DNA from: a virus
Taxonomy: Duplodnaviria; Caudoviricetes
Length of the DNA stretch: 62,297 bases
IMG/VR virus record: IMGVR_UViG_3300042893_000318
Coordinates: 1-62,297 of that record
Direction: 5' to 3' (one strand)
Positions 6,902-60,533 of the stretch are shown in pieces. A program made the position numbers and the translations under genes. Within the stretch, counting starts at the first letter, position 1, and each line of letters starts with the position of its first letter. The notes under the pieces were generated by a model, which was not told the origin of the DNA, ran no database searches, and worked only from the letters and a program-made list of their open reading frames with translations.

Positions 6902-7119
6902 TATTTTATTTTCCCGCCAAATTTAGACCAAGCTCTTTCATGTAAGAAGAAGCCAACCATTTCACATGCTGTATATACAATTGCAAATGTACCAGCGTAC
7001 TCCCAATGAGCTTCACCAGTAATAGCCTTTTCAAAAAAATAGACCATTGTGCCAACAAACCCAATATGAACTGCTGGCCAAGTAATTGATTTGTATAAAC
7101 TTCTTTTATTTGATTCCAT
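6901..7119 (-). CDS. DUF2061-like membrane protein
   Basis: RSLYKSITW...HERAW pattern with two TM segments; leaderless start. Confidence 0.7.
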   Translation of the reverse strand: MESNKRSLYKSITWPAVHIGFVGTMVYFFEKAITGEAHWEYAGTFAIVYTACEMVGFFLHERAWSKFGGKIK

Positions 7120-7151
7120 AATACTATTATACTCTTTCTGTTAGGTGAATA

Positions 7152-7183
7152 AAATAGGGCGGGAATTTAATCCCGCCCTATTT
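7152..7183 (-). terminator. Intrinsic terminator
   Basis: Perfect 13-bp inverted repeat AAATAGGGCGGGA/TCCCGCCCTATTT just after the 7188-8450 stop, with a T-rich tail on the minus strand. Confidence 0.8.
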
Positions 7184-7187
7184 ATAA

Positions 7188-13306: not shown

Positions 13307-13488
13307 TATTTGTCCTCCTTATTTCTAATTGGGCTTGTTAATACCCATAGGGCTGTTGTTGCCATGATTCCATATCCAACAATTGTCTTAGCACTACCGT
13401 CCAAAACTACCCAGGCTATAAACATTCCAAGGAGAGTCCATGCCTGGTCTACCATATCTTTTAGGATATTTTTTACTATTCTTACCAT
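13306..13488 (-). CDS. Small two-TM membrane protein
   Basis: Two hydrophobic helices; coupled to both neighbours. Confidence 0.7.
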   Translation of the reverse strand: MVRIVKNILKDMVDQAWTLLGMFIAWVVLDGSAKTIVGYGIMATTALWVLTSPIRNKEDK

Positions 13489-18538: not shown

Positions 18539-18787
18539 TTATAACGTTCCGTCTTCATTTTTGTCAATGGTGCTCTCAACAAGTTGCTGTACATATTCTG
18601 AGAAATGCTTCCTAATGTTTCCGCTTGGCCTAGTGCCCAATACTTTCCATAGTCTTTTATATTCAATTACATTAGAGAAAGTAGTAGGACAAAGCATGAC
18701 TTCGTTATATTCTTTTAATATAGTTGGAAGGGGTACATGTTTTCCACAGCACTTGCATTCTTTAGCTTTTTCTTGATATATACTCAT
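18539..18787 (-). CDS. Cys-containing hypothetical protein
   Basis: CKCCG motif; coupled to terL. Confidence 0.65.
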   Translation of the reverse strand: MSIYQEKAKECKCCGKHVPLPTILKEYNEVMLCPTTFSNVIEYKRLWKVLGTRPSGNIRKHFSEYVQQLVESTIDKNEDGTL

Positions 18788-38219: not shown

Positions 38220-40865
38220 TTAGCATGGCTCACCGCTTAAATAGGATTCGCAATCGCTAAAGGTGTAGCACATCCCGTAGAACGCATCGACACCGCTGCA
38301 CAGATAATTACCTGCTGGTGGAAAGTATGGGAAGAACGGTGGGAAGAATGGCGGGAAGAATGGTGGGAAGAATGGTGGGAAGAACGGGAAGAATGGTGTT
38401 GCAAAGTAAGGTGGGAAGAACGGTGCAGCTGCATCAGAGCCATTTGGAACCTTATTGCTTACTGATTGACCACTACCAGATATACCATTACCAGATGTTC
38501 CGCTGTAAGGTACAACTTGAACAAAATAAGAAGTTCCAGAAACTAGACCACTTATTGAGTATGAGGTATTTGTGGTAGATGTTGAAATTCCATTAGGTCC
38601 ACCAATAGTGACGGCGTAAGACCCTGCACCATAAACTGAATTCCAAGTTAGGCTTAAAGATCCGCTTGTGTATGATTTAACATCTAATCCAGTTAAATCT
38701 GGAAGTCCAATTGGTCCAATTTCATTTGTAATAATTGTTTGGCTTCCGTAGGCATTACTCCAAACAATAGTTACTCTCATATTATAAGATAGATCTGTGG
38801 ATCCAAGTACATAAGATGTACCATAATTTTGTGCAGTTACCCATGCTCCAGAAGATCCGCTATTTCTTTGCCATGTTATTGATGTTGACGTGACTGCTTG
38901 ACCAGCATTGGGATCTGTTTTATTTAAAGTTAATGTAGATCCAGATGCTGCTGATCCAGAAATAGATGCTGTTCCTCCAGAAGGTGCGGATGCGTTCCAT
39001 CGAGCATACATTGTAATTGAGCTTGGAGGGGTAAAAGAACCACCAGATGCAATTGGTCCATAAGTATAATCTCCAGATGGATTATTGTAGTACCCAAGAA
39101 ATGCATAGCCATCTTTAGTTCCTGGAGATGGCGCAATATGAGCTGTTCCAGCAGTTTGTGTAGTTGTCCCTCCGCCAGTGCCTCCATTTATAGAAACATT
39201 CCATGTAACGGTATACGATTTTAAAGCCCACTGTGCATATAAATCTAAATTTGCATTAGATGAATAACTTGTTCCTGGAGCATAATTAGTTCCAGTTCCA
39301 TTTGCGGCGGTGTTCCAAGTAACAAAATCATAATCTGTTTTAGTAAAACTATTGGCAGCAATTGTATACGCTGCGCCGCCTTGAGTATATGTTCCAGATG
39401 ACATTGTTCCGCCAGTGCTAGTATTTCCAAAATAATTAATAGAATAGTTAACTGGCGTTGCTGGGTATGGTATAACAGAATTTGATGCTGAAGAATACGT
39501 TCCAGTTCCCGCTGAATTTACTGCTGCAATTTGAAAAGAATAAGAGGTCCCCTGTACAAAACTACCAGTTGCCGTTAATGGGCTGCTTGTCCCAGACTGA
39601 GTGGTAATAGATATAGAAGGGCTTGATATTATATTATATGAAGTAATTGTTCCTCCGCCATTAGAAGATGGGGCGGTAAATGGAACTGAAACTACAGTAT
39701 CGCTTGTTCTAGACACTGTACCTATTGTGGGTGCACCAGGAACTGTAATTGCTGAGATAGTTATATTACTAACAGTAGATTCTGCATATAAGCTATTTCC
39801 TTTATCAGATGAGTTTTGAACTTTAAAAACAAAATTATAAGTTCCAGGAGAAAGACTATAAAACCCATTTGCTAGATCTGGAGTAAATGAGCTTGAAGAT
39901 GTACCAGTATATGATATTAATAATATTTTATTTGGATCATCGGCAGCATATTGATAATTATAGGTTACGCCAGTTGTTGTTGCAGAAACTGTAAATGATG
40001 ATATGGATGGAGTCTTATAATATACCAAAGCAGAAGATGAGTATATAAAGTCGCTTGCTTGTCCAGAACTATTGCTTCCTTTTACTCCCAGCCTTAAATA
40101 TTTACCCTTATACGTTGAAGCATCGTATGATAGATTATCAGTATTTCTTACAGTCCATCCAGTAGTTCCATTATCTGAAGTTTCCCAGCTTACTATATTT
40201 GAAGTAATAGTAACATCATTATAGTAGCTTCCGTATCCAGTTATATTGTAAGTATAGTTAGTATTTGCATCTCTAGAAATTGTTGGGGAGCCAGGAATTC
40301 CTTTGGGTCTTGGATAGTTTATTGTAACAAATCCAGTCAATACACTATTTAAAGTAAATGTACTAAATGAAGTAGTAGTTTTATTAGGGGTAACATTTGC
40401 ATTTGTTGCAGAAACAACAAATCTAAATAGAGTATTTGCTCCAGATGGAAAATCTGATTCTTGTAAAGTATATGTATACTGAGCACTAGTTGTAGGATTA
40501 ACATTAAAATTTGTTGGATTTCCTATTGGTATCCATGTAGGATTACCGCTAGTTGGAACCACCGCTCTTTCAAATTGATACGTACCAGATGAATAGTTTG
40601 TCCAGTTATAATTAGTTCCGACTAAAACTGGGGCACTGCTAGTCCAGTCTACTGTTCTATCAGTTGTTCCAGATATTGATATTGCTACTCTATTTATTCC
40701 AGGAACTGAAATTTGTGGTTGTCCTGCTCCGCCCCAAAATAACTGCCAACCAGATGCTGCGGTATTAGCAAATCCAGATATAGCTTGTTTCCATCCGCCT
40801 ACAGTATTTATCCAAATATTTACAATCTGCTTCCATCCATCGGAGGTATTTATCCAATTGGTCAT
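38220..40865 (-). CDS. Tail fibre / receptor-binding protein with FN3 and Listeria-Bacteroides (B-repeat) domains
   Basis: VPGAPTIG...AVNSAGTG FN3; two B-repeats (FTKTDYDFVTWNT...LYAQW, KDGYAFLGYY...MYARW); C-terminal PFFP repeats and Cys-rich tip. Confidence 0.8.
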   Translation of the reverse strand: MTNWINTSDGWKQIVNIWINTVGGWKQAISGFANTAASGWQLFWGGAGQPQISVPGINRVAISISGTTDRTVDWTSSAPVLVGTNYNWTNYSSGTYQFERAVVPTSGNPTWIPIGNPTNFNVNPTTSAQYTYTLQESDFPSGANTLFRFVVSATNANVTPNKTTTSFSTFTLNSVLTGFVTINYPRPKGIPGSPTISRDANTNYTYNITGYGSYYNDVTITSNIVSWETSDNGTTGWTVRNTDNLSYDASTYKGKYLRLGVKGSNSSGQASDFIYSSSALVYYKTPSISSFTVSATTTGVTYNYQYAADDPNKILLISYTGTSSSSFTPDLANGFYSLSPGTYNFVFKVQNSSDKGNSLYAESTVSNITISAITVPGAPTIGTVSRTSDTVVSVPFTAPSSNGGGTITSYNIISSPSISITTQSGTSSPLTATGSFVQGTSYSFQIAAVNSAGTGTYSSASNSVIPYPATPVNYSINYFGNTSTGGTMSSGTYTQGGAAYTIAANSFTKTDYDFVTWNTAANGTGTNYAPGTSYSSNANLDLYAQWALKSYTVTWNVSINGGTGGGTTTQTAGTAHIAPSPGTKDGYAFLGYYNNPSGDYTYGPIASGGSFTPPSSITMYARWNASAPSGGTASISGSAASGSTLTLNKTDPNAGQAVTSTSITWQRNSGSSGAWVTAQNYGTSYVLGSTDLSYNMRVTIVWSNAYGSQTIITNEIGPIGLPDLTGLDVKSYTSGSLSLTWNSVYGAGSYAVTIGGPNGISTSTTNTSYSISGLVSGTSYFVQVVPYSGTSGNGISGSGQSVSNKVPNGSDAAAPFFPPYFATPFFPFFPPFFPPFFPPFFPPFFPYFPPAGNYLCSGVDAFYGMCYTFSDCESYLSGEPC
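38322..38424 (-). repeat. 12-bp tandem repeat encoding (PPFF)n
   Basis: gggaagaa(t/c)gg(t/c) units. Confidence 0.9.
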
Positions 40866-43800
40866 ACGCTATAGACCAATACTATGTCCCCTTGCTTACC
40901 GCCAGATGGCTGAGCATCTGTAGTGGTAAATCTAACTTCCTTTAAATTAGATGCATTAGAAGGACTAATTCCAATTGAAACTCCATCAGTTTCGCTAAGA
41001 GAAACAAATCCAGTTGTAGTTGTTTTATTTGGATATAAAAATAGGCCAGCTACTGATGAACCAATTCTTCCATAAGAATCTCCTCTAATTAAAAATCCAC
41101 TTTGAAAAGATGAAGATGAAGAAGTATTAATTGCAAATGTTCCTCCGCCTGGAGAATCTAATTGAAAAGAAGCACTTGTAACATTGATAGAATATCCATT
41201 TGAAGAAGTTCCTTCAAAAAACTTTATTGTATTTGATGCTGCTGAATCTATTTCTATTCTAGTGCTTCCAACCGCACCTGTTCTTAATGTTCCGCTAAAT
41301 AAAGCATTACCGTTAGAATCAATATTAAATTGAGTAGATGTTATTGCACCATTGGCAAGGGTAAGCGGTCCTATAACAGCAGATTTAGTTGTTAGCATAC
41401 CTGCTGTAAGTTTAAATAATTCTTCTCCCGTACCAACATTTGTACCGTATCCATATATTCCTGTATCATCAATATAGACTCCGCTTGCAGGTCTATCAGT
41501 TTTATTAGCAGTAGCAGATGTTTTAAATACTGATCCAACAATTTCAGCACCAGATATTTTACTTGTTGCATCTATGTTGCTTGCAGTAATTGTTCCTTTA
41601 AAAAATGCATCTCCGTCATTATTTATATAAAAATTCTTTGATGACATTGCTCCATCATCTAGGCTAATTGCCAATCCATTATTACTAAAATCACTTCCAA
41701 CTCCACCCGATAAAGGGTTTTGACCGTATAGTGTTGAAATTAATAATCCTGTTGAAACTGCTCCGCCTATAATATAAGTTGCTTCTGAGCTACCTTGTGC
41801 CGCATTTACTTTTTGAATAATTGCGGCAGCATTAAGATCTTCTGGCTGTAACGCAAGGTCGGCAGCAGCTTTTGCAGCAGCTGCTTCTAATTTAGCTAGT
41901 GCTATCTCATCAAAAGTAGATCCAGATTCAATTACCAATGCTCCAGAAATAACGGCACCAGTTGCGTATAAATTTCCTCCTGCAGTAACTCTAAAATTAG
42001 CACCAGATGCAACACTTCCACCAGTTGCAGATTGTCCTGCCCATAAAACAATATCATTCGCAGAAGAAACTTGAGGCCTTATTCCAACATAGTATGCGCT
42101 GTTATTAGCAATAATTGTTCCAGAAGAATTTAATGATATACCGTTTTTACTTATAGTTGTGCTATCAACATCCCAGCCGCCAATGTTTGCAGATACTGTT
42201 GTTAATTTTCCAGTACTTGCATTTATAACAGTTTTTTCTGTGCTATTTTGATAGAAGGAAAGTCCAGATGTATTTAATATATATCCTGTACCAGATATTT
42301 CTCCAGATACAATCGTTCCTGAGTATAAAGATCCTCCAGATGCAATAGAAACATTGCCTTTAAATGTTCCCTTTTGTGCTATAAGATTTCCATCTATCGC
42401 AAACTCTGAGCCGTTCCAATTTAAATAATTAGATGTTGATCCTCCTATATTTAGTCTTGCTGAGTTTGCAGCATTTAAATACCAGTAGTTGCTTGAATCT
42501 AAATAAAGACCTTTATCATTAGCGCCAGAAATTCCATATCCTAATTTCATATTTCCAGCAGAAATATAATTAGACATTGATGGTGTTCCAGGAATCAATC
42601 TGTCGGTAGCAGATATATAATTTGTAGAAGTGTTATTAAATTCATCATATGTTGCTACCGCTATTTTGTAAGTAGAACCTATTGCTAATCCACCAAGTCT
42701 ATAGGTGGTACCAGTACCTGGAGAATCTACATAAGAATATGTTGTTCCACCATCATTACTAAATCTAATTCTATATCCTCTAATGCCTCCGCCAGTTACA
42801 GATGGCCAAGAAACATCTATGTATCCATTAAATCCTAAATATCCAGAAGTATCAATTCCTGCAGTTGTTGTAACAGAAATAACATCTGATGGGCCTTCAG
42901 TATCCGCAGTGACTGCAGCGTATGGAGTTACATGCTGAGCAGTTCCGTATGTAGTAGCATTTCCAGTAGAGTCATAAAACTTTGCACGAACCCATCTTTT
43001 ATTTGAATTAAGTGTATTTACGTTTAAAGGATTTTGATTTCCTTGAGCCACTTGTGTATACCCAGTGCTTGGAGCAGTATTAGAACTACTCTCTACCTCT
43101 TCAATGTATATTTGATCTAATGGTTTTCCAGACTGACTATTCCAAGAAACAGAATAAGAAAGAATTCCTGGAGTCAATGTTATTACTGGAGTATCTAGCG
43201 GGGTTACATAGTCTGAAGAAGTCTCAGTAGTAACTGCAGATAAATTTCCAAAACTATCTACTGCTGTCACGGACATTGTAAATCCACCAGCAAATAAACC
43301 AAACGTTGCAATATTTAGTTCACGACTCAAATAAAAAGCTTGAGATGAAGATGTTTTATTAACTGCCAGTATAAAAGATCTTGAGCGTCCGCTGTTTGTT
43401 AATTTAACTATAAAATGATTTATATCCAAATTTGAATTAGTTGAATCTGAAAATGTTGAATCATACGTAAATGAAACTTTTAATGTATCTGTTTTAGTAG
43501 TTCCATCATCTTTAAGCCATGTGCCAGATAATGAACTTATTGCTGTGGGAGATTTAAATGATCTAGCAGACTGAATTGAACTAAATAAAGAAAGTGATCC
43601 TAATGCTGTCTGCGCCTGAAGCTTAAAAAAGTATTCTCCTATTGGAAGAGTTATTGTCTTAGTTCCAGCTTCAGTAAAAAATTGTCCAGAGTTTACAAAC
43701 TCACTTCCGTATGTCCCGCCTTTGATCCAAACATTTACCTGCTTTAGACCCACCATTGTACCGTCTAAACTATTTAATCCAGTCCAAGTTAGTTTAACAA

Positions 43801-44044
43801 ATCCATTACCGCCAACTAAGTTTCCAGAAACAAATTTAGGAGTATTTGGAGTTCCCTCTGATACTGTAAATGTAGAAAATGTTGAAGACCATTCACTTGT
43901 AGTCTTGTCTTCATACGCCCATCTAAACTGAAAATTATAATTTTCTGCAGGATTTAAATCATTTACTGTTACAAGAAAATAGTCATTAGTTTTTTTATCG
44001 CTGGTTGTATTTCTTAAATCATCAGGAATAATTTTATCTGCCAT
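40862..44044 (-). CDS. Minor tail protein with FN3 domains and beta-helical / fibre C-terminus
   Basis: Several FN3-like repeats (e.g. GYRIRFS...YKIAVATYD); Gly/Ser/Thr-rich; located in the tail module. Confidence 0.78.
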   Translation of the reverse strand: MADKIIPDDLRNTTSDKKTNDYFLVTVNDLNPAENYNFQFRWAYEDKTTSEWSSTFSTFTVSEGTPNTPKFVSGNLVGGNGFVKLTWTGLNSLDGTMVGLKQVNVWIKGGTYGSEFVNSGQFFTEAGTKTITLPIGEYFFKLQAQTALGSLSLFSSIQSARSFKSPTAISSLSGTWLKDDGTTKTDTLKVSFTYDSTFSDSTNSNLDINHFIVKLTNSGRSRSFILAVNKTSSSQAFYLSRELNIATFGLFAGGFTMSVTAVDSFGNLSAVTTETSSDYVTPLDTPVITLTPGILSYSVSWNSQSGKPLDQIYIEEVESSSNTAPSTGYTQVAQGNQNPLNVNTLNSNKRWVRAKFYDSTGNATTYGTAQHVTPYAAVTADTEGPSDVISVTTTAGIDTSGYLGFNGYIDVSWPSVTGGGIRGYRIRFSNDGGTTYSYVDSPGTGTTYRLGGLAIGSTYKIAVATYDEFNNTSTNYISATDRLIPGTPSMSNYISAGNMKLGYGISGANDKGLYLDSSNYWYLNAANSARLNIGGSTSNYLNWNGSEFAIDGNLIAQKGTFKGNVSIASGGSLYSGTIVSGEISGTGYILNTSGLSFYQNSTEKTVINASTGKLTTVSANIGGWDVDSTTISKNGISLNSSGTIIANNSAYYVGIRPQVSSANDIVLWAGQSATGGSVASGANFRVTAGGNLYATGAVISGALVIESGSTFDEIALAKLEAAAAKAAADLALQPEDLNAAAIIQKVNAAQGSSEATYIIGGAVSTGLLISTLYGQNPLSGGVGSDFSNNGLAISLDDGAMSSKNFYINNDGDAFFKGTITASNIDATSKISGAEIVGSVFKTSATANKTDRPASGVYIDDTGIYGYGTNVGTGEELFKLTAGMLTTKSAVIGPLTLANGAITSTQFNIDSNGNALFSGTLRTGAVGSTRIEIDSAASNTIKFFEGTSSNGYSINVTSASFQLDSPGGGTFAINTSSSSSFQSGFLIRGDSYGRIGSSVAGLFLYPNKTTTTGFVSLSETDGVSIGISPSNASNLKEVRFTTTDAQPSGGKQGDIVLVYSV

Positions 44045-49291: not shown

Positions 49292-49869
49292 AATTCTTGG
49301 GCTGGGTCTATTGTTTTTCCCTTAACATTTCTTTTAATTACAGAGAATGAGCAAGACGTAAAATTAACTTTATAATATTCTATTCTGTCAACTGTGCTAC
49401 TCTCTGTTATTTTTTCTCTGCCATAAAAAATTTTAATATTAAATGTATTTACTCCAACATTAGAATAGAATCTTTGTAAATCTACCGCTCCCAGACCACC
49501 ATCAACTGTTAAATCTTTAAATGATGGAAGCATGTCCCATGACGTAGAGAAATTCTTTTTATCCGCAATAAAGAATTTACGTAAAGTACCATTGCTCATT
49601 CTTTGAGATTTTTCTATTCTATTATGCTCTAATGATAAAGGTTGTCTATTATGTTCTGATAGTTTAACCCAGTCTATTTCTGAATTAGATTCCCAAAATG
49701 TTGATCCTGATGCTGGAGTTTGTCCAATAGTTGTTAGTGCACCTGTTTTTCTTTTCCAAAGAAGTCCGCTATAATAAACTTTATCTCCTGGACTATATGT
49801 AAGAGCCGCATTATATCTTGGAGTTGTATCAATATATAGGAGGGATCCTACTGGTAAATAAATTGCCAT
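49258..49869 (-). CDS. Distal-tail-like protein with an inserted CBM5/12-like motif
   Basis: Immediately after the tape measure gene; RMSNGTLR motif; YSPGDKVYYSGLLW insert. Confidence 0.65.
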   Translation of the reverse strand: MAIYLPVGSLLYIDTTPRYNAALTYSPGDKVYYSGLLWKRKTGALTTIGQTPASGSTFWESNSEIDWVKLSEHNRQPLSLEHNRIEKSQRMSNGTLRKFFIADKKNFSTSWDMLPSFKDLTVDGGLGAVDLQRFYSNVGVNTFNIKIFYGREKITESSTVDRIEYYKVNFTSCSFSVIKRNVKGKTIDPAQEFWSASISMEQV

Positions 49870-52800
49870 TAGACTCTTCTCCCCATTCCATTCATAGATG
49901 CTCTTTGAACATCTAGTCTCTTAATTTCTGCTAATACTTTACGTGTTGTCATATCTGAATATGTATTTATATCCATGCCTTCCGCCGCATTATTAGTCAT
50001 TGATATGTTATAAACCGCTGGTGCCATTGTAGCATTATTTGCGTTAGGATTAAAGGGGTTCAGGTTAGCTGGAACAACTGCTTCATTCTTATGAATCAGT
50101 GCAAGCATATCGGCGGGAACCATATTAATTCCATCTTTAAATTGAGGAACAGACATGTTGGCAGAATAAGAAGGATTAATATATCCGCCATTTTTCATTA
50201 TAACTCCATCAGGAGGCAAATGTGGCTTACTCTTTCCAAAAGTTCCTTGACCTAGTACTCCAAAAGCTTTTCCAAATTTTGCATATTGCTCTATAAATCT
50301 CTCAAGTGTTGATGGCAGCATATCTTTATATACTGAAAAAGTTTTTCTCAACTCTTCTTGTGGCAATAAATTTATCATACGTTTAATATTTTTTTCAGGA
50401 TCTAGGGTTGTAAGCACTGAGTGCTGTGCGCCACCTTGAAGTGCTCCTCCAGCATGTGCAATTGTGTCTATAATCCATTCTGGACCATTTTTTCCAACTG
50501 TACTGAAAATTTCATTTAAATTCATAGGAACATAAGATTCTATTCTATCTCTTCCACCTCTAACATGTGCTACTCCTGGAACTCTTTCTCCAAGTAGTAG
50601 TGCTCTCGCATGTTTTCTTGTGTGACCAAGTACATTGATAAAATAATCTTCTAATGCGGCATAAGCTTTTTTATTTTGAGACCATAAAGACTTTCTTCCT
50701 CCACGCATATCCCAAACTTTAGACATACTTTTTGGAGTATTCCATATTGTTTGCCATAAGCTTCCACCAGCTTCTGCATTTTTACCTACTGCATATTCTC
50801 TTGCTAGCATCTTATCCACTGTTGTAAATAAGTCAAAGTTGAATATGCTGCCTGTTGATGCTTGTTCTCCAGGCTTTAATCTATTGTATATGTTATCTGG
50901 AAGAGATCCTCCATGAAAAGTTGGCGTATCAAATAGGTCAAGTAAAGATGGGTCAAGGTCTTTCGGTATGTCAGATTTAGATTTCTCCCATATTTTATTT
51001 TTGATTGTAAGCCCTGAATCTAAAATGTTTTTATCAGATAGTTTGCGTATTTGATTTAGTGCTGAAATACTACCAAACGGTGTATACCTATAAATCAAAT
51101 CAGATAATTTTTCTTTTGATCGGTTTTCTTTTATTTTTGTAATAAGATCTTTAAGGTTTCCATATTTATTTTTAATTGGAGAAATTATTTTAGAGGACAA
51201 CGGGCTTACAGCCTTATCTTTAATTATTTTTCCAATAAGTCCAGCTAGTTCTCCAAATGCTTCTCCTGGGTGATGAATTGGCTGAGTAGGCATCCAGTCA
51301 TCAAAGGTGCTGACTGGTCCCCCTGTTCTAGGTACTGGTCTTGGTCTATCTATTATTTCTGATTTAAAACTACGACCAGTTTTGCTAAAATTATATGCAT
51401 TTTTAAATTGTGAAATTGGATCAGTAGGTTTTGGCCAAGGTAGTATCTTTTTTAGCCCTGGAATCTTTCTTGCAACCTTATGTATTGGTTTATATGGCAT
51501 ACCTATTAAGTCTTTAATAAATGACGGAGACATTTTTAAAGCTGTTTTAAGAGATGATCCTAAATTAGAATTTCGAATTTTATTAAGTAAAAAGCCAGTC
51601 TCTTCTTCTAGCACTGTTCCCTTTGGCTTATTCAATGCAAGCCATACAGCATCATTAATATCTCCTGGGGCCTGTCCAGCACTTATTCTGTTCATAATAG
51701 ATCCAGTGGTTCCCGCTTGGTTCATTAATGAACCTAATTCTTCTCCAGCATATCGGTAATCTGGCATGCCTAAACTTACGTCTCTTGACCAATGGTTATC
51801 TTTACCCTGTAATAATTTCCACAATAGATAGTTTTGAGATTTAATATTTGGATTTCTAAAGTCAATATATTTGCCTCGAGGTATACTAGTAACCTTATTC
51901 ATGGTTCCAGCACCATCTCCCCATGTTCCAGGAGTATTGTATCCATGTTCATACAGTTGTGCTTCTGGCCTACTAGAAGTAGAGAAGAATCCCATTCCAT
52001 AATGAGGATCTCTTCCATAGCTTCCGTCTAATACACTTGTACCTGAAAATGGTGGATCCCAATTAGATTTATGAAATGATCCGTGCCATTGATCGTCTTT
52101 AACTAATTTTTTAGCTTTAAAGTAATTAGCATATTGATTAAATAAATTAACTGGCTTGTATAATACAGATTGAACTTTATCAGGTAATTTTGGTATAACG
52201 TATTTTCCAATAAACTTTCCTGTTTTATCAAGACCAGCGCCAAAGCCCATAGAAATTGCAACATTCTGAGCAATGCTTGATGGACCCATTGCATCTAATT
52301 GTTTTTTGGCATCTAATGCAGTAAGAGTTGATCTATTTTTTTGACCCCAAGATTTTGGATACTGTTTAACACCTGTTCCACCCTTTACTCCATACTGAGA
52401 ACCATCTTTTGCTAATCCAACAAGGCCCTCAACTAAACCAGCTACAGAGCCAACTACGCCACCACCACCGCCAGCAGCAGCTAAACCAGATACTCCTCCT
52501 TGAGCAGAATTAAAAGCTACCCTCCATAATGCTCTTCCCCATTTAGAAAAACCAGATGCATTTTCGTTTGCACCCCATTTAAGGCTTAAAGCTTTTTCTG
52601 CTTCTTCTCCCAATTGCCAAGCGCCTGCGGCTACGGCTGCCCTACCAGTGGTTCTTTTTTTAAATAAGTTTTTTAATGAGGCAAACCCTCCCCATTTGTA
52701 ATGGGGAATTCCAACTTGTCCACCATTTGCAAATCCAGAGTTGTACTGCTCAAGAAAATCCTTCATCTTAACTTGATCTAGTCCCTTTGCCCCATATTTC

Positions 52801-55800
52801 ATTAAATCTCTAAACATTATTGAAGCTGCGCTTAATTGATCAATGTTGAGTGGCTTAAAGTCTCCACCTGCAGATTTTAAAAGAGCAGTGTTATACATAG
52901 CTGATTCCTGTGCAAATATTTTAGCAGCATTTTTGGGATTATATGTAGGGCCATACATGGAGTTTACTGAAGAATCAGTTCTATCAAAAACTGGAAACCC
53001 TAATCTTTTAAGAGTAGAAATTCCTTTTTCTGCATCATCAGATCTATCAGTAGAAAACGTAAGACGTGGTAATCCATTCTTAAAAGTGCCGCTAGCGTTG
53101 TAAGCTTCCATTATTGTAGCTGGATACATTCCAAATGGTGTTCTTGGATCAAGAGAATATGCTTGATTTACTAAGCTATATGGGCCTTGTGCTCTAGTAT
53201 ATTCATGCTGAAGATCTACCGCCCCTTTAACGGCTCTTTCCCCGTCTTTACCTTTTGGAATATAATAGATACCACTTCTTGAAGGTGTTTCTGATGCATC
53301 AATTGTTCTTTTTACTACAACATCAGAATTAAAAAGATCTGTAATGCTTCTTTCTAATGGACTATTTGTTGTAGTCTTTGCAGTAGTTGCAAATCTTGGG
53401 ACAACTATTGGTGCTTTTGGTTTTGTAAATTTAGATACAATATTTTTAATAAGACTTTTTATTGGATTAATAACGAAGCCGCCGCGATCAAATTTAAGTA
53501 TGTTGCTAGCGTATCCACCATTTGCAAATTTTCCAGAATTTAGTGCATCGAATGTTTCTGTTCCATACTTCTTTACAGAGTCTGCTTTAATTACATACTC
53601 ACCATTTGAAAGCATAGCTGGAATAGAATCAGATGTGGCAGTTCCTGGACCACTTACATTTCCGCCTGGTCTATAGTGTTTAACTGGTCCACCCATAGCA
53701 AGCTTTGCAAATGACGGGCTTACTGTTCCAAATAAATACTTAGTGTCTCTTCCAAATAATCCTCCTGGGGAATATATATTTTCGGCAACAGTTCCTTGAC
53801 CCCACTGTCCTATTACCTTAATAGATTTTTTATCTATACCAGAAACTATGGACGCATGAGTTGGAACCCCATCTTGTTTCCCAGATTCGTCAGGAAAATC
53901 AAACCAGGCTAGATCTCCAATTTTAATATTTTTTAAATTATCTTTATTGCTTAGGTCATTAAAAACACCCTTTTTCTTATAATCTCTTGTTGCTTGAAAA
54001 GCGCTAAACATTTTATCTGATATGTCAACGCCAGAATTTTCTGCTACCCACGCAATAAATGCTCCACACCAATATAATAAATCTGAGCCTAGCTTGTAAT
54101 TTTTATTTGCCCACACGCTAAATTTATTAACAGACTGACTTTCTATACCCTTTCGGTTAGCGGTACTATGTACTAAATAATTATGCCCTGATCCGACTTG
54201 ACTTCTTGCAATATCAAGAAATCTTTGTAGGGATCCCATCGGAGATTTAATTTTGTCTATGCCGTATTCTTTAACTGGTGGAGTATAGAATCTTTCACCA
54301 TAGTTACTGTAAAAAGCTTTTGTAAATTCTTCTTCAGTTTTATAGTCTTTTCTTTCAATTTCTTTTGGCATTTGCCAAACAGAACCAGCTGGTTTTACTG
54401 GAAGGAATTTTCCACTACCAACTGAAATTTTTGATGGGTAATTCCCTGTTAAGCCTCCGTCTGCAAATTTACCAGCGTTTAATGCGTCAAACGTTCCTGT
54501 TCCATATTTCTTTACAGAGTCCGCCTTGATTACATATTCTCCATTTGAAAGCATGGCGGGAATAGAATCAGATGTTCCAGTTCCTGGTCCTCTTACATTT
54601 CCGCCTGGCTCGTAATGTTTGATTGGCCCACCTGTTGCAAGCTTCTTTAAGGTAAATCCAGTACTTACATTAAAGCTAACAATTTGATATTTTTGATTGT
54701 CAGACTCAATTATTTTACCTATGTATGTAGTTTTACCTTCATCAGGAGCAATGCCGTATCTACTTAATGTTGTAGGACTAATAAATTTTTTATTGCCATC
54801 TGTAATTAAATCTTTTGCAGCAATTTGAGTTGGCTTGCCGCTAACGGCTGCAAGTATCTTTGTTAGGATACCGCTATTGGCGAGAGCATTTTTATCTGCT
54901 GTTGTTAAAGATTTTCCATCCTCGCCAAGAACTTGATTTAGTATACTATCTATTCCAGTTTTTACATTTGGTGTACCTAAATTAGGGAAGCCGAACTTGG
55001 TCATAAGATCTGACATTTGTTTTTCTGCTGGAGTTGGGGCAACTACTCCTATTTTTAGACCAGGCACTAGTTTATCTGCTCTGGCTTGCAAAGCATTTGC
55101 ACCATCAATTTCTGCTTGGGTATCTATATTTCCAGATTTATTAATAAAAGCAACTGTATCAAGCATTAATTGTTTTAATGCTTCAAGTTTTGTGGTGGCA
55201 TCCTTTACTCCATCCAATTGCTTTTGAAGAATTTTTGAAGAATTCTCTAATTTTTCTTGAAGCTTATCAATTTTTGCTTGCTGATCTGCCGTGTCTGCTT
55301 TTTCTTTATCATCTATTGCTCTTATTGCTAAAGTTTTTTGCTGACTTCTTTGAAGCATTTGAAGATCTAGTTGAGTTTGTGCAGCAGTTGCAGAATCTCC
55401 CATAGCTAAAGCATCTTGATACTCTAATTGCTTTTTCTTTATTTGAGTAAGAATATCTTCATCTTCTGATTGTCTAGACAAAGACTTTCTTCTGGCATCC
55501 GCTTCTTCTTTAATCTTATCAATATTTTTTTGATGTAACTTAATTTCTGCGTTAATAGCATCTCTAGACTTTTCAGCATTTTTTTGAATTGCATCTGAAT
55601 TACTTGTATTTGATTTTTCTGCTTTTTGTATTGCATTATATAGTTTATCTAGATCTGTTCCAGAACTACCACCACTTAATAAAGCTGATAAATTTATTTG
55701 AGCTGTTGCTAAAGCAATTGCCATATCATTTGTCATTGACTTTAACTCTACTTTAGCACCAGTTAGGTATATCTTCCATTTTGCCAAGGCCGCAGCGGTA

Positions 55801-58800
55801 TTTTCAGATCCATTTAAAACATTCTCTAATTCTGGAGCCAACTTCAATAATGCATAATATTGAGCAACTGTTAACGATTCTGAACTTCCTTGAGCAGCAT
55901 TAACTTTTTCCATTGTAATAGCCCAGGCTTTAGATGCATCAACAATTTTACCAGTTTCATCTTCAGTTCCAATTAAAGATTTTTCCATCTCTTGAACGCC
56001 GCTAATTAAACTATAAAAAGAATCTCCAATTTGATCTACGTTTCCTTCTTTTAATAAACCATTAAAGGTTTCAACACTAGAAATAGCTGCAGTGCTTTTA
56101 TCAATTATTAAACCAAATCCTTTGTCTGCTAAAACAGTAAGCGCTGATGAAGCTTTATCAGAACTTAAAATTAACGCATATATGGTATTGCTTGCCTTTT
56201 CAGCACTCATTCCGCCTGAAATAAATTGTGATTTTAATTGAGATGCTTTTTGAACTACTTCATCTGCGCCAGCTTTGTTAAATACTTCAATAAAATCTGG
56301 AAGATCTTTTTGAACAGTTTCTTTAAGTTCTTTAAGCTCTTTAATTGTTAAGTTTAGTCCATTCACCATTGTTGATGAAGCATAAAATGAAGCTGCAGCA
56401 GCTGCGGCTAAATCTGATTGAGTTTTAAAATCTTTTAACTGTTCATTTAATGATTTATAATTAATTCCCAGCTTAGAAGCACTTTCAGCGGTTTGTCCAA
56501 ATGCTAAATTAATTACTCTTCTATGCTCATTAACTTTATCATTTACAGATTTTATTATTGCTGCTCCTGCTACGAGTGCTGCAGTCCAACCAAAAACTGG
56601 TTTAGCTTTTAAAAATGATAATGCCTTTTGAGTTAATGAAACTTTTTTAGTTACTTCTCCTGCTGCTTTTCCAATGTTTAAAATTTTATTAGCTAGTACA
56701 TTTCCTAGAAGATCTCCGCCCATACTTCCAAGCAATCCACCCATCATTGATCCGCCAGTTAATTTTGAACCTAATCCATATCCAGCCATTCCTGGAATCA
56801 TTCTCATTAGCATGGCCATTACTTCGCCACCCTGAGCAAAGTTCTGAACTTGTCCCCCATTATTAAATCCTGGAATTATTTTTCCGCTATTTTGCGGAAC
56901 AAAAAGTTCTGGTCCATTTTCTCCTACAACATATGGGAAAGCTCCAGATACTGGACCACCCATTTTTCTTTGTGGAATGTTAAGATCTCGTGCAAGCATG
57001 CCAATATTATCATCAAATTGCTGATCTCCAAAATGAGCCCATACGGTTCTATCTTTTCCTTTTCCGCTTCCTGAACCATAACTGCTAGGTCTTGCTCCTG
57101 GAACATTTATTCCAGTAGGGCTTGGGCCATGTGCTGAACTTGAGCTTTGTGTGTCTCTTCTTCCTGGAGACATTCTATCTTTTTGATAAGCTAGACTTAT
57201 TCCTGGATACTTAGACTCTAGTGCTCTTATCTTAGAAGTAATTACAGAAAATGCAATTCTTCCCAACTCAGGATCGCCATACAGTTGATCTGGAGAAATT
57301 CGTGATTGTATTTGTTTAGATATTTCTGATTGAACATAACTTATATCGGAAGGATCAACTTTTTTAAATGACAGGAATCTTTCAACATCTATTAAATTTT
57401 TGCTGTTTGCAATATGTGGTATTAATTCTGAGCCAGTAGCTCTGCCATATTTTAATCTCCTGTTTATTGAATTGGGCAGAATCATTCCCCAGTTGCCTAG
57501 TAATTTTGCAGGCTTTGAACTTCCTGATTTTACGCCGAACATTCTTAAAATTGCATTTACAACAGTTGAAGACATAAAGCCTCCAAGATTATTATTGTAT
57601 CCACCAATTCCACGACCACCATTAATTGCTTGCAAAAGTGGAAGGTTTGCTTGTGTTGCTGCTTTATTTACAACAAACTCTCCTGGGGTAAGCATTGCTG
57701 GAACAACATCTTTATTTACATTTGGGCCTGGAACTACTGATCTAGAACCATCATTATAATAAATTGGTCCGCCTTGATTACGATAAATTGGTCCGCCTTG
57801 ATTACGTCTTATTGTCGTTTCTGTACTAAAGCCACCACCCGAAGTTCTGATTCCACCTAATGCTCTAGCAACATTATCTACTAATGTCGCAGTAGGAGTT
57901 TTGTGGAACATCTCTTTCATATTTGACTTGCCAGTTTTTGGATCAACTACTGGCTGATTTGTAAATGGAACCATTGTTAGATTTGCAGTTCTACCTTGTG
58001 TAATTGCAATTTGTGTAGTTGTTTCTGCAATCATCGCTTCTACTCTAGCATTTAATGCTACAATTTTTGCTCTAGCTTGTTCTACTGTAATTGCTCCAGC
58101 TTGTGTTTGTGCAACAATTGCCGCACCTTCTTGAGCTGCCAATTTTGTTAGTCTTGTTATTTCTGGAAGAAGTGCTTGATATGAACCAGAAAGTTCATGG
58201 GTTACAGTACCAGTTGCAGCAACTTCTTTCTTTAATAGCGCAATTTCTGCTTCTGATTGCATTGCTATAGCACCAGTCATTGCATGCCATTTAGCTGCTT
58301 CTTCTGGAATTACTCCTGTTGATACTCCGCCAATTGTAGTAAGTCCAGGAATGGCTGGCAATCCATGATCGGCATACATCTGAGGATTTCTTCCAATTTT
58401 TCTATTAACTGGAATTGGTCCTGGAACCATGCCAAATATTGTTTGTGCTGCTCTTTCTGCCTCTGTCATACTTCCAACAGGATTCATATGGGCACTTGCT
58501 CTTGTTCCCATTCTGCCTACAAGAGGATTACTTGGATCTACAGATACACCTCTATATATGCCTCCTGGAGTTCCCGCTAGCGCAACAGTTCCTGCTATAG
58601 TAGCAATTGTTGGTTGAACCGATATGGCTCCAGAAGCAGCTTTTTGTTGTAGTATAGTAAATTCTGTAATTAAGTTTTTAAGAGAAGCACTTAGAATGTC
58701 TGCTGCTGCGGCATCGCTATAGAATGTTTTCTCTACTAAACTTCCAGCCTTACTTGCAGCCAATATTTCTGGAGTTAATAATCTAAAGCCTTCTCCGCCT

Positions 58801-60533
58801 CTAAATAAAGCTTTTAGGTGACCAATGCCTTTAATAACATAACCAATAAAGTTAGCAAACACACCAGTTAACATAATGATTGGGCCAGCCAAAGCAGTAA
58901 TTCCTGCTACAAGTGTGAGCATTGACTTAACTGGGCCAGGAAGCATTTCAATAAACTTAACTACCGAGCTTGTTAGATTTAAGAAGAATGTTTGAACATT
59001 TAAGAAAGACTCTCCAACTCCAGCTAAGTCTGCTTTTAATGTCTGTAGAGCTCTTTGATATTTACCAGAAGCGGATTCAGTAATCTGTGCTAATTCTCGG
59101 CCTGCTACATTTGCTAAATCTGCGCTACTTGCTTTCATCAAGTCCATAACTTGAAGAGTCTGAGATCCTTGTTTTCCAAGGTTAGCAAATAAAGCATTCA
59201 TTCTGGCAAATTGGAACTTGCCAAATAGCTGCTCGATTGCCTGTTGTTTTTGTAATGGATTTAGAGTATCTAATGCTTTTTGCAATTCTGAAATTGTATT
59301 TGTTAGATTGCCAGCATTCTTTGTTACTATTCCACTAAGGTCAATCCCCATGTCTGCAAATAATCCTTTTGCTACTTTTGTAGGATTAATTAATGATGCA
59401 AGCGCTGACTTAAGAGCGTTTGCTCCTTCTGACGCATTGATTCCGCCTTCTTTCATTGCTGTAAGATAAAGTGCTAAATCTTTTACGCTTCCGCCCATGC
59501 CTTGAATAACTGGACCAGCTTTTGGAATAGCTTCAATTAAATCTGCAAGGCTTGTTGATGTCTGGTTTTCAACTGCGTTAAGAAAGTTAATAGATTCAGA
59601 AAGTTGATCAGTGTTCTGTTTAAATGTAGTTTGAATTGCTAGAGTGGCTTTCATGGCATCTTGTCTGTCTACTTCACCAAGTACTGCTAGACGAGTTGTT
59701 TCTTTTGTTGATGCTAAAAGTTCGTTACCTTGTTTTCCTGTTGCTGCAATATCTGCCGCCAAAGCAATTGTTTCTTTAAAGGAGGATCCATACGCGGAGG
59801 CTAGTTCTCTAGCAGTTGCTGTAACATCTTTTCTGACCTTTGCTAATTCAATTGAACTAGTTGCTGCAACTCCACCATAAACCTTGGTAAGTCTTACAAG
59901 CTCTTGATCAGCTTCTCTAAATGCTTTAGATGCTGCCATGCCAAATGCTGCAATTGGAACTGTTAATCCAACTGTTAATTGACGACCTGCCCACTGAGTA
60001 TTCTTACCCCAGTTAATTAATTGAACTCCGCCGTCCTGAATAACTTTGTTATAAATTTGTAATTCTTTTTTAGCTATTGCTGTCTTATTGGCTACTGCGT
60101 CTAAGCCTTTTGGAACTTGTACATTAAACTTCATTAAGCCATCAGCTGTTCTACCTAATGGCTGTACAATAGCATTTTGAAGTGATACTTGCTGTCTAGC
60201 AAGGTCTCTGATTAATCCGCCTGAAGTTCTTGTGTGGTCTTGCCATGTTCTAAAATAATCTTTTAGCTTTAACTTTCCGCCATCTAAACTTCTGCCAAAG
60301 GCTTCTACCTGTGAACCTACTGTTACAAAATGAGAAGAAAACTGGCCAGTGCTTCTAAGCGTTTCGGAAAACGACTTTTGAATCTGGCCAGCCTGTGCTG
60401 CTAATGTCTTATTTGTTATGGATAGTTCTTGTTGTAATTTAGCTAGCGCTGCCGTGGTTCGTTGCACATCTGCAATTAACCCTGAAAAATCAGACCTAGC
60501 AACTATATTAGTTACTATCTGCTCATCAGCCAT
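49869..60533 (-). CDS. Tape measure protein (3554 aa) with multiple cargo domains
   Basis: Follows the tail chaperones; N-terminal TMP core (GRQLTVGLTVPI, EGANALKS); helical regions; internal CHAP and ART-like domains. Confidence 0.92.
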   Translation of the reverse strand: MADEQIVTNIVARSDFSGLIADVQRTTAALAKLQQELSITNKTLAAQAGQIQKSFSETLRSTGQFSSHFVTVGSQVEAFGRSLDGGKLKLKDYFRTWQDHTRTSGGLIRDLARQQVSLQNAIVQPLGRTADGLMKFNVQVPKGLDAVANKTAIAKKELQIYNKVIQDGGVQLINWGKNTQWAGRQLTVGLTVPIAAFGMAASKAFREADQELVRLTKVYGGVAATSSIELAKVRKDVTATARELASAYGSSFKETIALAADIAATGKQGNELLASTKETTRLAVLGEVDRQDAMKATLAIQTTFKQNTDQLSESINFLNAVENQTSTSLADLIEAIPKAGPVIQGMGGSVKDLALYLTAMKEGGINASEGANALKSALASLINPTKVAKGLFADMGIDLSGIVTKNAGNLTNTISELQKALDTLNPLQKQQAIEQLFGKFQFARMNALFANLGKQGSQTLQVMDLMKASSADLANVAGRELAQITESASGKYQRALQTLKADLAGVGESFLNVQTFFLNLTSSVVKFIEMLPGPVKSMLTLVAGITALAGPIIMLTGVFANFIGYVIKGIGHLKALFRGGEGFRLLTPEILAASKAGSLVEKTFYSDAAAADILSASLKNLITEFTILQQKAASGAISVQPTIATIAGTVALAGTPGGIYRGVSVDPSNPLVGRMGTRASAHMNPVGSMTEAERAAQTIFGMVPGPIPVNRKIGRNPQMYADHGLPAIPGLTTIGGVSTGVIPEEAAKWHAMTGAIAMQSEAEIALLKKEVAATGTVTHELSGSYQALLPEITRLTKLAAQEGAAIVAQTQAGAITVEQARAKIVALNARVEAMIAETTTQIAITQGRTANLTMVPFTNQPVVDPKTGKSNMKEMFHKTPTATLVDNVARALGGIRTSGGGFSTETTIRRNQGGPIYRNQGGPIYYNDGSRSVVPGPNVNKDVVPAMLTPGEFVVNKAATQANLPLLQAINGGRGIGGYNNNLGGFMSSTVVNAILRMFGVKSGSSKPAKLLGNWGMILPNSINRRLKYGRATGSELIPHIANSKNLIDVERFLSFKKVDPSDISYVQSEISKQIQSRISPDQLYGDPELGRIAFSVITSKIRALESKYPGISLAYQKDRMSPGRRDTQSSSSAHGPSPTGINVPGARPSSYGSGSGKGKDRTVWAHFGDQQFDDNIGMLARDLNIPQRKMGGPVSGAFPYVVGENGPELFVPQNSGKIIPGFNNGGQVQNFAQGGEVMAMLMRMIPGMAGYGLGSKLTGGSMMGGLLGSMGGDLLGNVLANKILNIGKAAGEVTKKVSLTQKALSFLKAKPVFGWTAALVAGAAIIKSVNDKVNEHRRVINLAFGQTAESASKLGINYKSLNEQLKDFKTQSDLAAAAAASFYASSTMVNGLNLTIKELKELKETVQKDLPDFIEVFNKAGADEVVQKASQLKSQFISGGMSAEKASNTIYALILSSDKASSALTVLADKGFGLIIDKSTAAISSVETFNGLLKEGNVDQIGDSFYSLISGVQEMEKSLIGTEDETGKIVDASKAWAITMEKVNAAQGSSESLTVAQYYALLKLAPELENVLNGSENTAAALAKWKIYLTGAKVELKSMTNDMAIALATAQINLSALLSGGSSGTDLDKLYNAIQKAEKSNTSNSDAIQKNAEKSRDAINAEIKLHQKNIDKIKEEADARRKSLSRQSEDEDILTQIKKKQLEYQDALAMGDSATAAQTQLDLQMLQRSQQKTLAIRAIDDKEKADTADQQAKIDKLQEKLENSSKILQKQLDGVKDATTKLEALKQLMLDTVAFINKSGNIDTQAEIDGANALQARADKLVPGLKIGVVAPTPAEKQMSDLMTKFGFPNLGTPNVKTGIDSILNQVLGEDGKSLTTADKNALANSGILTKILAAVSGKPTQIAAKDLITDGNKKFISPTTLSRYGIAPDEGKTTYIGKIIESDNQKYQIVSFNVSTGFTLKKLATGGPIKHYEPGGNVRGPGTGTSDSIPAMLSNGEYVIKADSVKKYGTGTFDALNAGKFADGGLTGNYPSKISVGSGKFLPVKPAGSVWQMPKEIERKDYKTEEEFTKAFYSNYGERFYTPPVKEYGIDKIKSPMGSLQRFLDIARSQVGSGHNYLVHSTANRKGIESQSVNKFSVWANKNYKLGSDLLYWCGAFIAWVAENSGVDISDKMFSAFQATRDYKKKGVFNDLSNKDNLKNIKIGDLAWFDFPDESGKQDGVPTHASIVSGIDKKSIKVIGQWGQGTVAENIYSPGGLFGRDTKYLFGTVSPSFAKLAMGGPVKHYRPGGNVSGPGTATSDSIPAMLSNGEYVIKADSVKKYGTETFDALNSGKFANGGYASNILKFDRGGFVINPIKSLIKNIVSKFTKPKAPIVVPRFATTAKTTTNSPLERSITDLFNSDVVVKRTIDASETPSRSGIYYIPKGKDGERAVKGAVDLQHEYTRAQGPYSLVNQAYSLDPRTPFGMYPATIMEAYNASGTFKNGLPRLTFSTDRSDDAEKGISTLKRLGFPVFDRTDSSVNSMYGPTYNPKNAAKIFAQESAMYNTALLKSAGGDFKPLNIDQLSAASIMFRDLMKYGAKGLDQVKMKDFLEQYNSGFANGGQVGIPHYKWGGFASLKNLFKKRTTGRAAVAAGAWQLGEEAEKALSLKWGANENASGFSKWGRALWRVAFNSAQGGVSGLAAAGGGGGVVGSVAGLVEGLVGLAKDGSQYGVKGGTGVKQYPKSWGQKNRSTLTALDAKKQLDAMGPSSIAQNVAISMGFGAGLDKTGKFIGKYVIPKLPDKVQSVLYKPVNLFNQYANYFKAKKLVKDDQWHGSFHKSNWDPPFSGTSVLDGSYGRDPHYGMGFFSTSSRPEAQLYEHGYNTPGTWGDGAGTMNKVTSIPRGKYIDFRNPNIKSQNYLLWKLLQGKDNHWSRDVSLGMPDYRYAGEELGSLMNQAGTTGSIMNRISAGQAPGDINDAVWLALNKPKGTVLEEETGFLLNKIRNSNLGSSLKTALKMSPSFIKDLIGMPYKPIHKVARKIPGLKKILPWPKPTDPISQFKNAYNFSKTGRSFKSEIIDRPRPVPRTGGPVSTFDDWMPTQPIHHPGEAFGELAGLIGKIIKDKAVSPLSSKIISPIKNKYGNLKDLITKIKENRSKEKLSDLIYRYTPFGSISALNQIRKLSDKNILDSGLTIKNKIWEKSKSDIPKDLDPSLLDLFDTPTFHGGSLPDNIYNRLKPGEQASTGSIFNFDLFTTVDKMLAREYAVGKNAEAGGSLWQTIWNTPKSMSKVWDMRGGRKSLWSQNKKAYAALEDYFINVLGHTRKHARALLLGERVPGVAHVRGGRDRIESYVPMNLNEIFSTVGKNGPEWIIDTIAHAGGALQGGAQHSVLTTLDPEKNIKRMINLLPQEELRKTFSVYKDMLPSTLERFIEQYAKFGKAFGVLGQGTFGKSKPHLPPDGVIMKNGGYINPSYSANMSVPQFKDGINMVPADMLALIHKNEAVVPANLNPFNPNANNATMAPAVYNISMTNNAAEGMDINTYSDMTTRKVLAEIKRLDVQRASMNGMGRRV
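53515..54640 (-). repeat. Two ~185-bp direct repeats (53515-53700 and 54458-54640) flanking a CHAP domain
   Basis: Both encode GGP.KHY.PGGNV.GPGT.TSDSIPAMLSNGEYVIKADSVKKYGT.TFDALN.GKFA.GG with high DNA identity. Confidence 0.9.

Follow-up and report, generated by a model that had tools for sequence, protein, structure and literature searches.

A giant tape measure protein in an uncultured tailed phage carries exchangeable cassettes between conserved junction modules

The stretch of phage DNA analyzed here, referred to as the window (62,297 nucleotides; Caudoviricetes, IMG/VR virus record IMGVR_UViG_3300042893_000318), contains a single open reading frame (ORF) for a protein of 3,554 amino acids at positions 49869..60533 of the minus strand, and this protein is predicted to be a TP901-type tape measure protein (TMP). 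An earlier note, made from the letters of the window, had described positions 49869-57810, which correspond to residues ~908-3554, as a cargo polyprotein divided by recurring x-x-x-GG motifs. We denote the window's own TMP as P0001 and its five closest relatives as P0002-P0006. The PF10145 model, with a cut-off of 33.2 bits, matches residues 239-438 of P0001 at 98.5 bits (E = 6e-28), and the TIGR01760 model, with a cut-off of 28.8 bits, matches at 89.8 bits (E = 1.7e-25), while TMP families of the PHROGs database match residues 1-850, the alignment to phrog_28 extending to residue 1766. The N-terminal core (residues 1-900, 57834..60533; like all parts of the protein discussed below, on the minus strand) is 85-94% identical in the five closest relatives and contains a hydrophobic segment at residues 535-571 with a Kyte-Doolittle peak of 2.06. 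Further hydrophobic segments lie at residues 1312-1330 and 2690-2708. A long conserved middle region (residues 1290-1955, 54669..56666), with 27-68% identity across the family, is probably a helical ruler, as judged from its sequence. Among cultured phages, the nearest relatives are Streptomyces phages of 130 kb, in which identity amounts to 34-37% over the first ~600 residues.

The GG strings and the five module strings quoted in the earlier note are all present in the translation of P0001. Based on a comparison with 2,000 shuffles of the protein, the loose motif is only modestly enriched: full-length P0001 contains 50 GG dipeptides against 34.1 ± 5.2 expected (2 of the 2,000 shuffles reach 50), residues 900-3554 contain 39 against 27.3 ± 4.8 (25 shuffles reach 39), and hydrophobic-x-x-GG occurs 15 times against 8.2 ± 2.7 (33 shuffles reach 15). 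For narrower patterns, which were picked after inspection of the data, no shuffle matched the observed number (GGP[IV], 6 against 0.15; [FYLM]A.GG, 6 against 0.39; GG[PQEYF][VI], 11 against 0.63). The real repeating units are longer modules rather than the loose x-x-x-GG motif, namely three copies of a module A, a module B and a module C. The earlier proposal of five related modules thus stands for three of them, which are repeats of the ~60-residue module A, whereas VGENGPELFVP is part of module B and ALIHKNEAVVP is part of the C-terminal module C. The copies of module A, which give local hidden Markov model (HMM) E-values of 1e-20 to 1e-32, lie at residues 919-978 (copy 1, 57603..57779, E = 9.7e-21), 1966-2027 (copy 2, 54453..54638, E = 2.7e-31) and 2279-2340 (copy 3, 53514..53699, E = 1.4e-31). 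Module B, with the motif GGP...GE-G-PE...P, occupies residues 1189-1230 (56844..56969, E = 1.8e-22), and module C occupies residues 3450-3544 at the C-terminal end (49905..50186, E = 2.1e-43). The local HMM search detected no further copies of modules A, B or C elsewhere in the window. Profile-profile comparison related A to B over 17 GG-rich columns (P = 2e-4) and A to C over a hairpin (P = 0.009), and gave no link between B and C, which suggests a loose and weak relationship among the module types. Copies 2 and 3 of module A share 78.9% DNA identity; of 68 codons, 21 differ synonymously and 12 non-synonymously, which indicates that the peptide is conserved beyond the DNA alone.

Module A is common in cultured phages. 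With the consensus …G-P-G-T-x-T-S-D-S-I-P-A-x-L-S-x-G-E-Y/F-V… (~55-60 amino acids), it was detected by tblastn in 1,305 of 50,697 phage records, including 500 for Mycobacterium, 317 for Gordonia, 198 for Pseudomonas and 84 for Vibrio as hosts, and among the matches listed it lay under a TMP gene in 25 of 25 cases. Neither Pfam nor NCBIfam holds a model for it. Copy 2 matches two internal stretches of the TMP of mycobacteriophage Douge (8zdo_S, E = 7.5e-22); the module occurs twice in Douge gp16 and in OhShagHennessy gp16, with the copies ~385-395 residues apart, and once in gp46 of Pseudomonas phage JBD30 (residues 1018-1060). What sets the present uncultured lineage apart from these cultured phages is that module A appears three times and brackets enzyme cassettes. 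The TMP of Streptomyces phage LilMartin (2,105 amino acids; L086 9088-15405) contains a partial module A, then a Peptidase_M23 domain in the slot directly before module C, and then module C itself. Residues 1312-1374 of this TMP also give a sub-threshold Pfam match to the virion RNA polymerase domain PF21867 (E = 0.0066). Reports on the tails of Douge, JBD30 and T5 place the C-terminal 33-42 TMP residues in the hub (PMC13033339, PMC11445458, PMC10038345), and in the solved tails of Douge and JBD30 just these residues of the TMP were built, module A lying outside them (PMC13033339, PMC11445458). By analogy, module C is expected to be the hub plug.

To define relatives we searched with residues 900-3554, which yielded 710 proteins at E ≤ 1e-3, and the following statements refer to the best 120 of these 710 (2,037-4,576 amino acids) unless specified otherwise. 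A BLAST map shows wide conservation at both ends, over residues 1-950 (the core) and the last ~105 residues, and over the middle (1200-2050), and the stretches 985-1185, 2040-2270, 2345-2600, 2785-2985 and 3065-3445 are each found in some relatives only. Within the five closest relatives, identity is 85-94% in the core, 65-68% in the middle, 44-62% in a block described below as ADP-ribosyltransferase-like and 85-91% in module C, and the sequence between the conserved parts is unrelated. The ends of high-scoring segment pairs (HSPs) cluster at residues 974, 1189, 1965, 2033, 2276, 2343, 2608 and 3448. Altogether 460 of 741 HSP ends fall no more than 12 residues from a GG, positions that make up 25% of the protein, and 10 of 15 break clusters are at a GG. 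The bins at the ends of module A copies 2 and 3 (residues 2020-2039 and 2340-2359) hold 80 and 114 HSP ends, respectively. Direct inspection of alignments gave the same picture at single-residue resolution: identity to P0005, P0003, P0006 and P0002 sets in precisely at the GG at residue 3449 (4 of the 4 alignments shown); identity to P0005 and P0003 stops at the end of module A copy 1, at the terminal GG around 972-974 (...IN(G/S)G); and identity to P0005 picks up again at module B (...IPQR-x-MGGPV) and stops once more at the end of module A copy 2 (...KFADG(G/A)). The common scaffold can be written as core-[A]-slot-[B]-middle-[A]-slots-[C], the slots being filled with block J only in P0005, H and J in P0003, an OmpA domain and J in P0004, and F and J in P0002 (block letters as defined below). 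Module B is present in 70 of 130 proteins, of the 79 proteins that carry module C, 78 have it no more than 20 residues from the C-terminus, and 21 different module orders were counted among 121 proteins. Single-linkage clustering of slot contents was uninformative, as it chained into one cluster of 58. The earlier expectation that blocks vary while modules stay is borne out in these data, since relatives swap blocks with breaks at modules. As the relatives are mosaic rather than colinear and invariant, the idea that the modules act as recombination joints gains support as well.

Single blocks used as queries in the related-locus search returned 1 and 2 loci. With residues 2345-3450 as the query, 62 matches were obtained among 1.84 billion representatives, and those checked were giant TMPs or fragments, with no free-standing annotated homologue among them. 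A search for shorter relatives found 9 fragments. One contig of 70,944 bases encodes a 978-residue protein (P0130) with block I-like sequence and module C and without a core, which is either a naturally split TMP gene or an assembly frameshift. An OmpA-family peptidoglycan-binding domain is present in P0004 (residues 2020-2113, E = 5.5e-18), directly after a module A copy and in the slot that holds the hydrolase block in P0001, and an OmpA-family domain is also found in P0025 (residues 2678-2771, E = 1.7e-18). That the source is uncultured and that several shorter relatives are clearly fragments could suggest that P0001 is itself falsely long, either because the contig is chimeric or because several genes were read through as one. 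We regard such an artefact as extremely improbable. The reading frame is uninterrupted over 10.6 kb with uniform composition, the relatives come from many independent contigs and share the scaffold with module C at the terminus, and cultured phages have TMPs of 1,643-2,105 amino acids with the same modules.

The first cassette for which a fold could be modeled is block F (residues 2031-2277, 53703..54443), directly downstream of module A copy 2. An AlphaFold2 model built from a 24-sequence alignment (predicted local distance difference test, pLDDT, 80-96) points to a papain-like alpha+beta domain of the NlpC/P60-CHAP fold, that is, a putative cell-wall hydrolase. The best match in the VIA structure search was 7cfl_A (Z 13.3, root-mean-square deviation 2.8, 125 aligned residues); 30 chains were found at Z ≥ 8, and all rows shown at this level were NlpC/P60 or CHAP hydrolases. 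Foldseek returned 5d74 (E = 9.7e-5). Cys2156 (54066-54068), the sole cysteine among the 3,554 residues of P0001, and His2226 (53856-53858) are both invariant in the 24 sequences. At the sequence level, block F has no match to the Pfam models PF05257 and PF00877 at E ≤ 5, and TIGR02594, at 22.8 bits against a cut-off of 70.55, is the only match, itself sub-threshold, that NCBIfam gives on P0001 beyond the TMP model. The orthologous blocks of P0002 and P0008 reach 17.6 bits for CHAP and 20.3 bits for NLPC_P60, both below the cut-off. A C39 double-glycine peptidase was considered as an alternative fold and found little support, as C39 chains gave Z 6.2-6.4 against 13.3 for NlpC/P60.

The second modeled cassette, block J (residues 2781-2980, 51594..52193; pLDDT 70-97), has an ADP-ribosyltransferase (ART) fold according to matches that are middling in score and unanimous in kind. 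The top 12 VIA rows consist only of ART-fold chains (Z 6.8-5.0, 118-151 aligned residues), led by residues 1419-1610 of the cyanophage A4 pre-ejectosome protein (9k3a_B, Z 6.8) and followed by NatT (6.3), ParT (6.1), AcrIF11 and MbcT (both 5.8) and diphtheria-toxin-like chains (5.0-5.4). Diphtheria toxin fills the first ten rows of the Foldseek search of the PDB (best E = 5.9e-3, probability 0.99), and in BFVD ART-PolyVal-like proteins are on top (E = 2e-3, probability 1.0). The ART-PolyVal model PF18760 is matched by the J blocks of 2 of 16 relatives (best E = 0.0027). Within the 16 J sequences, F2849, T2852, S2854, Y2861, Y2865 and Glu2931 (51741-51743) are invariant, and the H-G-S motif of His2817 (52083-52085) is nearly so. 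The ART fold is accepted here, and an enzymatic activity of block J is regarded as likely. Since ADP-ribosyl terms occur 0 times in the paper on the cyanophage A4 pre-ejectosome (PMC12002296), the match to 9k3a_B serves as a structural note only. As a separate observation, region 1419-1610 of this ejected protein of cyanopodophage A4 may hold an ART-like domain that has gone unremarked.

Four further blocks complete the protein. The variable 'B-block' (residues 985-1185, 56979..57581) was detected at 5 of the 80 related viral loci, with 42-77% identity, and the five closest relatives have a stretch of 241-263 unrelated residues in its place; the block has no Pfam match and the members of its alignment no relevant one, and no usable match was found in the PDB or the ESM Atlas. 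Block H (residues 2345-2600, 52734..53501), located between ..RGG and FANGG, has relatives in P0003 (52%) and P0044 (35%) only, and no Pfam or ESM Atlas match. Block I (residues 2601-2770, 52224..52733) is Gly-rich and partly hydrophobic, with a poly-Gly run (2688-2692) that overlaps a hydrophobic peak (2690-2708), and is shared by ~20 representative relatives. Block K (residues 3065-3445, 50199..51341) has six representative relatives in the 1.84 billion and was modeled poorly (pLDDT 40-70), and Pfam scans of 11 members of its alignment gave no relevant match. An hhalign comparison of J with K on trimmed columns (E = 0.032) pairs WHGS with FHGG and FFSTS with LFTTV, so that K may be a second, diverged ART. 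Of the cargo named in the earlier note, the CHAP block is recovered, its fold being NlpC/P60-CHAP and its Cys-His pair conserved, and the Gly-rich hydrophobic segments are present as block I. The two ART-like domains reduce to one with an ART fold, J, the second (K) having the profile match and a poor model only. The possible GNAT-like domain was not recovered, as Pfam scans of all segments contained no GNAT (K being modeled poorly, B-block and H not being modeled). More generally, Pfam searches with twelve segments of residues 900-3554 gave nothing credible at E ≤ 5, a PDB sequence search with all of P0001 returned nothing beyond the modules in the TMPs of Douge and JBD30, and the alignment profiles A1 and A6 found no further match in the PDB.

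An ordinary ruler would accommodate part of these results. The blocks would then be length filler acquired by recombination, and the enzyme folds would be relics without a role in the host except muralytic help. Deletion of a 114-residue embedded motif from the TMP of phage TM4 is reported to have cut tail length by ~20 nm (PMC1796659), so that an embedded motif does contribute to length, at ~0.15 nm per residue; on this scale P0001 predicts a tail of ~530 nm and its relatives tails of 306-686 nm. Three blocks without a recognizable fold and the frequent gain and loss of cassettes are also what filler would produce. However, Cys2156 and His2226 are invariant, and the H-G-S, F..T.S and Glu positions of block J are invariant or nearly so, in relatives that are only 40-72% identical, and J has been kept in ~35 representative clusters. 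We therefore hold the plain ruler to be quite improbable.

The proposal that P0001 is a true polyprotein, in which cleavage at all or most of the GG junctions, either as the tail matures or once the protein is ejected, frees each cassette, can be weighed against what is known of TMP processing. T5 pb2 is reported to be cut after R1127, with the 92-residue pb2C remaining in the tip or tail and being released on infection (PMC10038345). In the T5 record R1127 is followed by A-E-G-G and then by a GE-G-E hairpin, which places the cut two residues before the GG, and the alignment of R1127 with position 1 of the module B profile scores only 4.6 bits (E = 0.003) in a two-sequence search. Strings like the T5 site are found at residues 1188-1210 of P0001 and, more loosely, at 3446-3490. 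In gpH of phage lambda the cut falls in the C-terminal part, which is rich in Gly, and residues 736-782, inside gpHC, match module A weakly (13 bits, again in a two-sequence search); the cut site itself lacks a precise position in the account given in PMC12617516. For JBD30 a cut at residue 1066, directly after module A, is hypothesized by its authors (PMC11445458). For polyvalent proteins, processing is presumed to be the work of metallopeptidases embedded in them (PMC5512222), and the HExxH peptidase motif occurs in 42 of 143 giant relatives, including P0002-P0006. In these relatives the motif mostly follows the ART block (HE-x-x-H-A-L-D and HELGHRD types), at the place held by block K in P0001, and the segment could be a processing peptidase or other cargo. 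P0001 itself has no HExxH, its only peptidase-like domain matches NlpC/P60 better than C39, block F is missing from most relatives that carry GG modules, and T5 has only one known cut. Cutting at every GG is thus unsupported, and we consider a polyprotein of this kind improbable. A single cut before module C, by analogy with T5, is plausible.

Based on the present data, we consider it reasonably probable that P0001 is a mosaic, cargo-carrying TMP, in which a conserved scaffold holds exchangeable cassettes at conserved junction modules. The scaffold, consisting of the TP901-type core with its hydrophobic segment, the long middle ruler and the C-terminal plug, would do the usual work of a TMP. 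The cassettes are set at the short junction modules, with edges ending in x-x-GG, and in P0001 they comprise the 200-residue B-block, the NlpC/P60-CHAP hydrolase, the 250-residue block H, the Gly-rich hydrophobic block, the ART-PolyVal-like domain and the 380-residue block K. As part of the TMP they would ride in the tail tube, probably adding to tail length as in TM4, and would exit the tail ahead of the DNA. The hydrolase would then attack peptidoglycan, and the ART could modify a host target before phage gene expression. Selection at the peptide level would hold the modules, possibly for a role in the protein such as register, a folding break or contact with hub or tube, and their conservation suggests that they double as recombination joints. 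If the protein is processed, the cut may, by analogy with T5, fall at the final junction, the one that precedes module C, and cutting at every GG would be unnecessary.

Several points weigh against this cargo-carrying TMP. We infer, rather than observe, that the cassettes are in virions, are ejected and are active. Folded 25-kDa domains in three or six copies would fit the tail lumen poorly, and storage in a non-native state has to be assumed for this reason. Blocks 985-1185, 2345-2600 and 3065-3445 have neither a family nor a confident fold, the ART matches of J do not exceed Z 6.8 or fall below a Foldseek E of 2e-3, and block J of P0001 itself has no Pfam match. His2817 and Glu2931 are candidate catalytic positions of the diphtheria-toxin-like H-Y-E type, placed by the spacing in diphtheria toxin rather than by a residue-level superposition. 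Both copies of module A in a 406-residue AlphaFold2 model have pLDDT below 50. Five of the 15 break clusters (residues ~1320, 1786, 2138, 2784 and 2977) lie away from a GG. HSP ends are moreover not independent, because the repeated modules cross-match, a problem that is avoided by the direct inspection of alignments in the closest relatives. Finally, the lack of HExxH in P0001, as seen in a motif search that does not cover the fold, leaves the protein without the self-processing domain typical of polyvalent proteins.

A bolder version, which we consider rather unlikely, is that the TMPs of this lineage are the tail-borne counterpart of the polyvalent proteins and serve as a reprogrammable injection system acting before phage gene expression. 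The junction peptide would then be both a recombination joint and a T5-like maturation site, and the tail would free enzymes (the wall hydrolase, one or two ARTs and three further proteins) ahead of the DNA, possibly directed against host defence.

Embedded muralytic domains, the fusion of a TMP to a polymerase and polyvalent proteins are already known. The closest published precedent is gp96 of Thermus phage P23-45, described as a 5,002-residue TMP fused to a virion RNA polymerase, for which a metallopeptidase and transmembrane regions are noted too (PMC10770324). Likened by description and not by sequence, it is a giant TMP with a non-muralytic enzyme for the host side of infection. Its enzyme, as described, is N-terminal and forms a single fixed fusion, whereas P0001 has several cassettes in its C-terminal two thirds, which are bracketed by modules and vary among close relatives. 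T5 pb2 (pb2* and pb2C), motif 3 of TM4 gp17 and the LilMartin TMP, as far as described, share with P0001 a muralytic domain just before the C-terminal plug, and LilMartin is also similar in its core (37% identity), partial module A and module C. These TMPs carry one wall-directed domain, whereas P0001 carries at least five blocks, including one ART fold without an obvious role at the wall. The closest concept is that of the polyvalent proteins, described as huge polypeptides in which unrelated enzymatic domains are combined and which presumably accompany the DNA into the host (Iyer et al. 2017, PMC5512222). P0001 resembles them in joining unrelated enzyme folds, here hydrolase and ART, in one structural protein of 3,554 residues, and ART-PolyVal (PF18760) is both the best viral fold match and the only Pfam hint for block J. 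It differs in having no HExxH where zincin-like metallopeptidases are their hallmark, and in being a tail ruler where polyvalent carriers, in the cases studied, are packaged in the head. The phrase 'tape measure' has 0 occurrences in PMC5512222. Neither an ART located within a TMP nor a system of cassettes bracketed by modules was the subject of any paper found in a literature search by title and start of abstract, with subscription journals outside its scope.

Phage T4 provides a comparison at the level of description. Its Alt protein is an ART that is packed in the virion and injected, so that, as proposed here for block J, a ready-made ADP-ribosyltransferase arrives with the DNA; Alt is a separate head protein, however, and lies outside the tail ruler. 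Alt is mentioned together with ModA and ModB in PMC7824862. If the cassettes of P0001 are delivered and active, long-tailed phages would gain a second route, besides head-packaged proteins, for enzymes that act before phage gene expression, and this tail route would be readily re-equipped. An ART delivered via the tail could modify host proteins of transcription, metabolism or defence; the solved ART-fold matches of J include an anti-CRISPR (6kyf) and NAD-consuming toxins. A link between cassette content and tail length offers itself for testing. As module A is common in cultured phages and has neither a family model nor a solved structure, its role is approachable in mycobacteriophages and in JBD30.

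The window belongs to a large phage genome with a G+C content of ~35%. Its minus strand encodes a DNA polymerase, a primase and a helicase as well as tail proteins. Upstream of the TMP gene are an immunoglobulin-domain tail protein and two small, chaperone-sized ORFs, and downstream are minor tail proteins with matches to phrog_10359, phrog_9983 and phrog_11445, so that the TMP gene sits in its expected place between chaperone-sized ORFs and minor tail genes. The downstream tail region also contains two large ORFs at 38220-40865 (881 amino acids, no PHROG match) and 40862-44044 (1,060 amino acids, a partial minor-tail match only), which are likely to encode host-recognition proteins. The G+C content is higher at 6001-8000 (0.416) and 14001-16000 (0.442) than in the background of ~0.35, and the ORFs in these stretches, at 7188-8450 (420 amino acids) and 13482-16004 (840 amino acids), have no PHROG match. 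The ORF at 18784-20589 (601 amino acids) weakly matches the terminase large subunit (E = 1e-15 to 4e-9), in the C-terminal nuclease part only. Three plus-strand ORFs of 110-150 amino acids that lie fully within the TMP gene, at 51307-51759, 53344-53676 and 57400-57759, are most likely chance frames.

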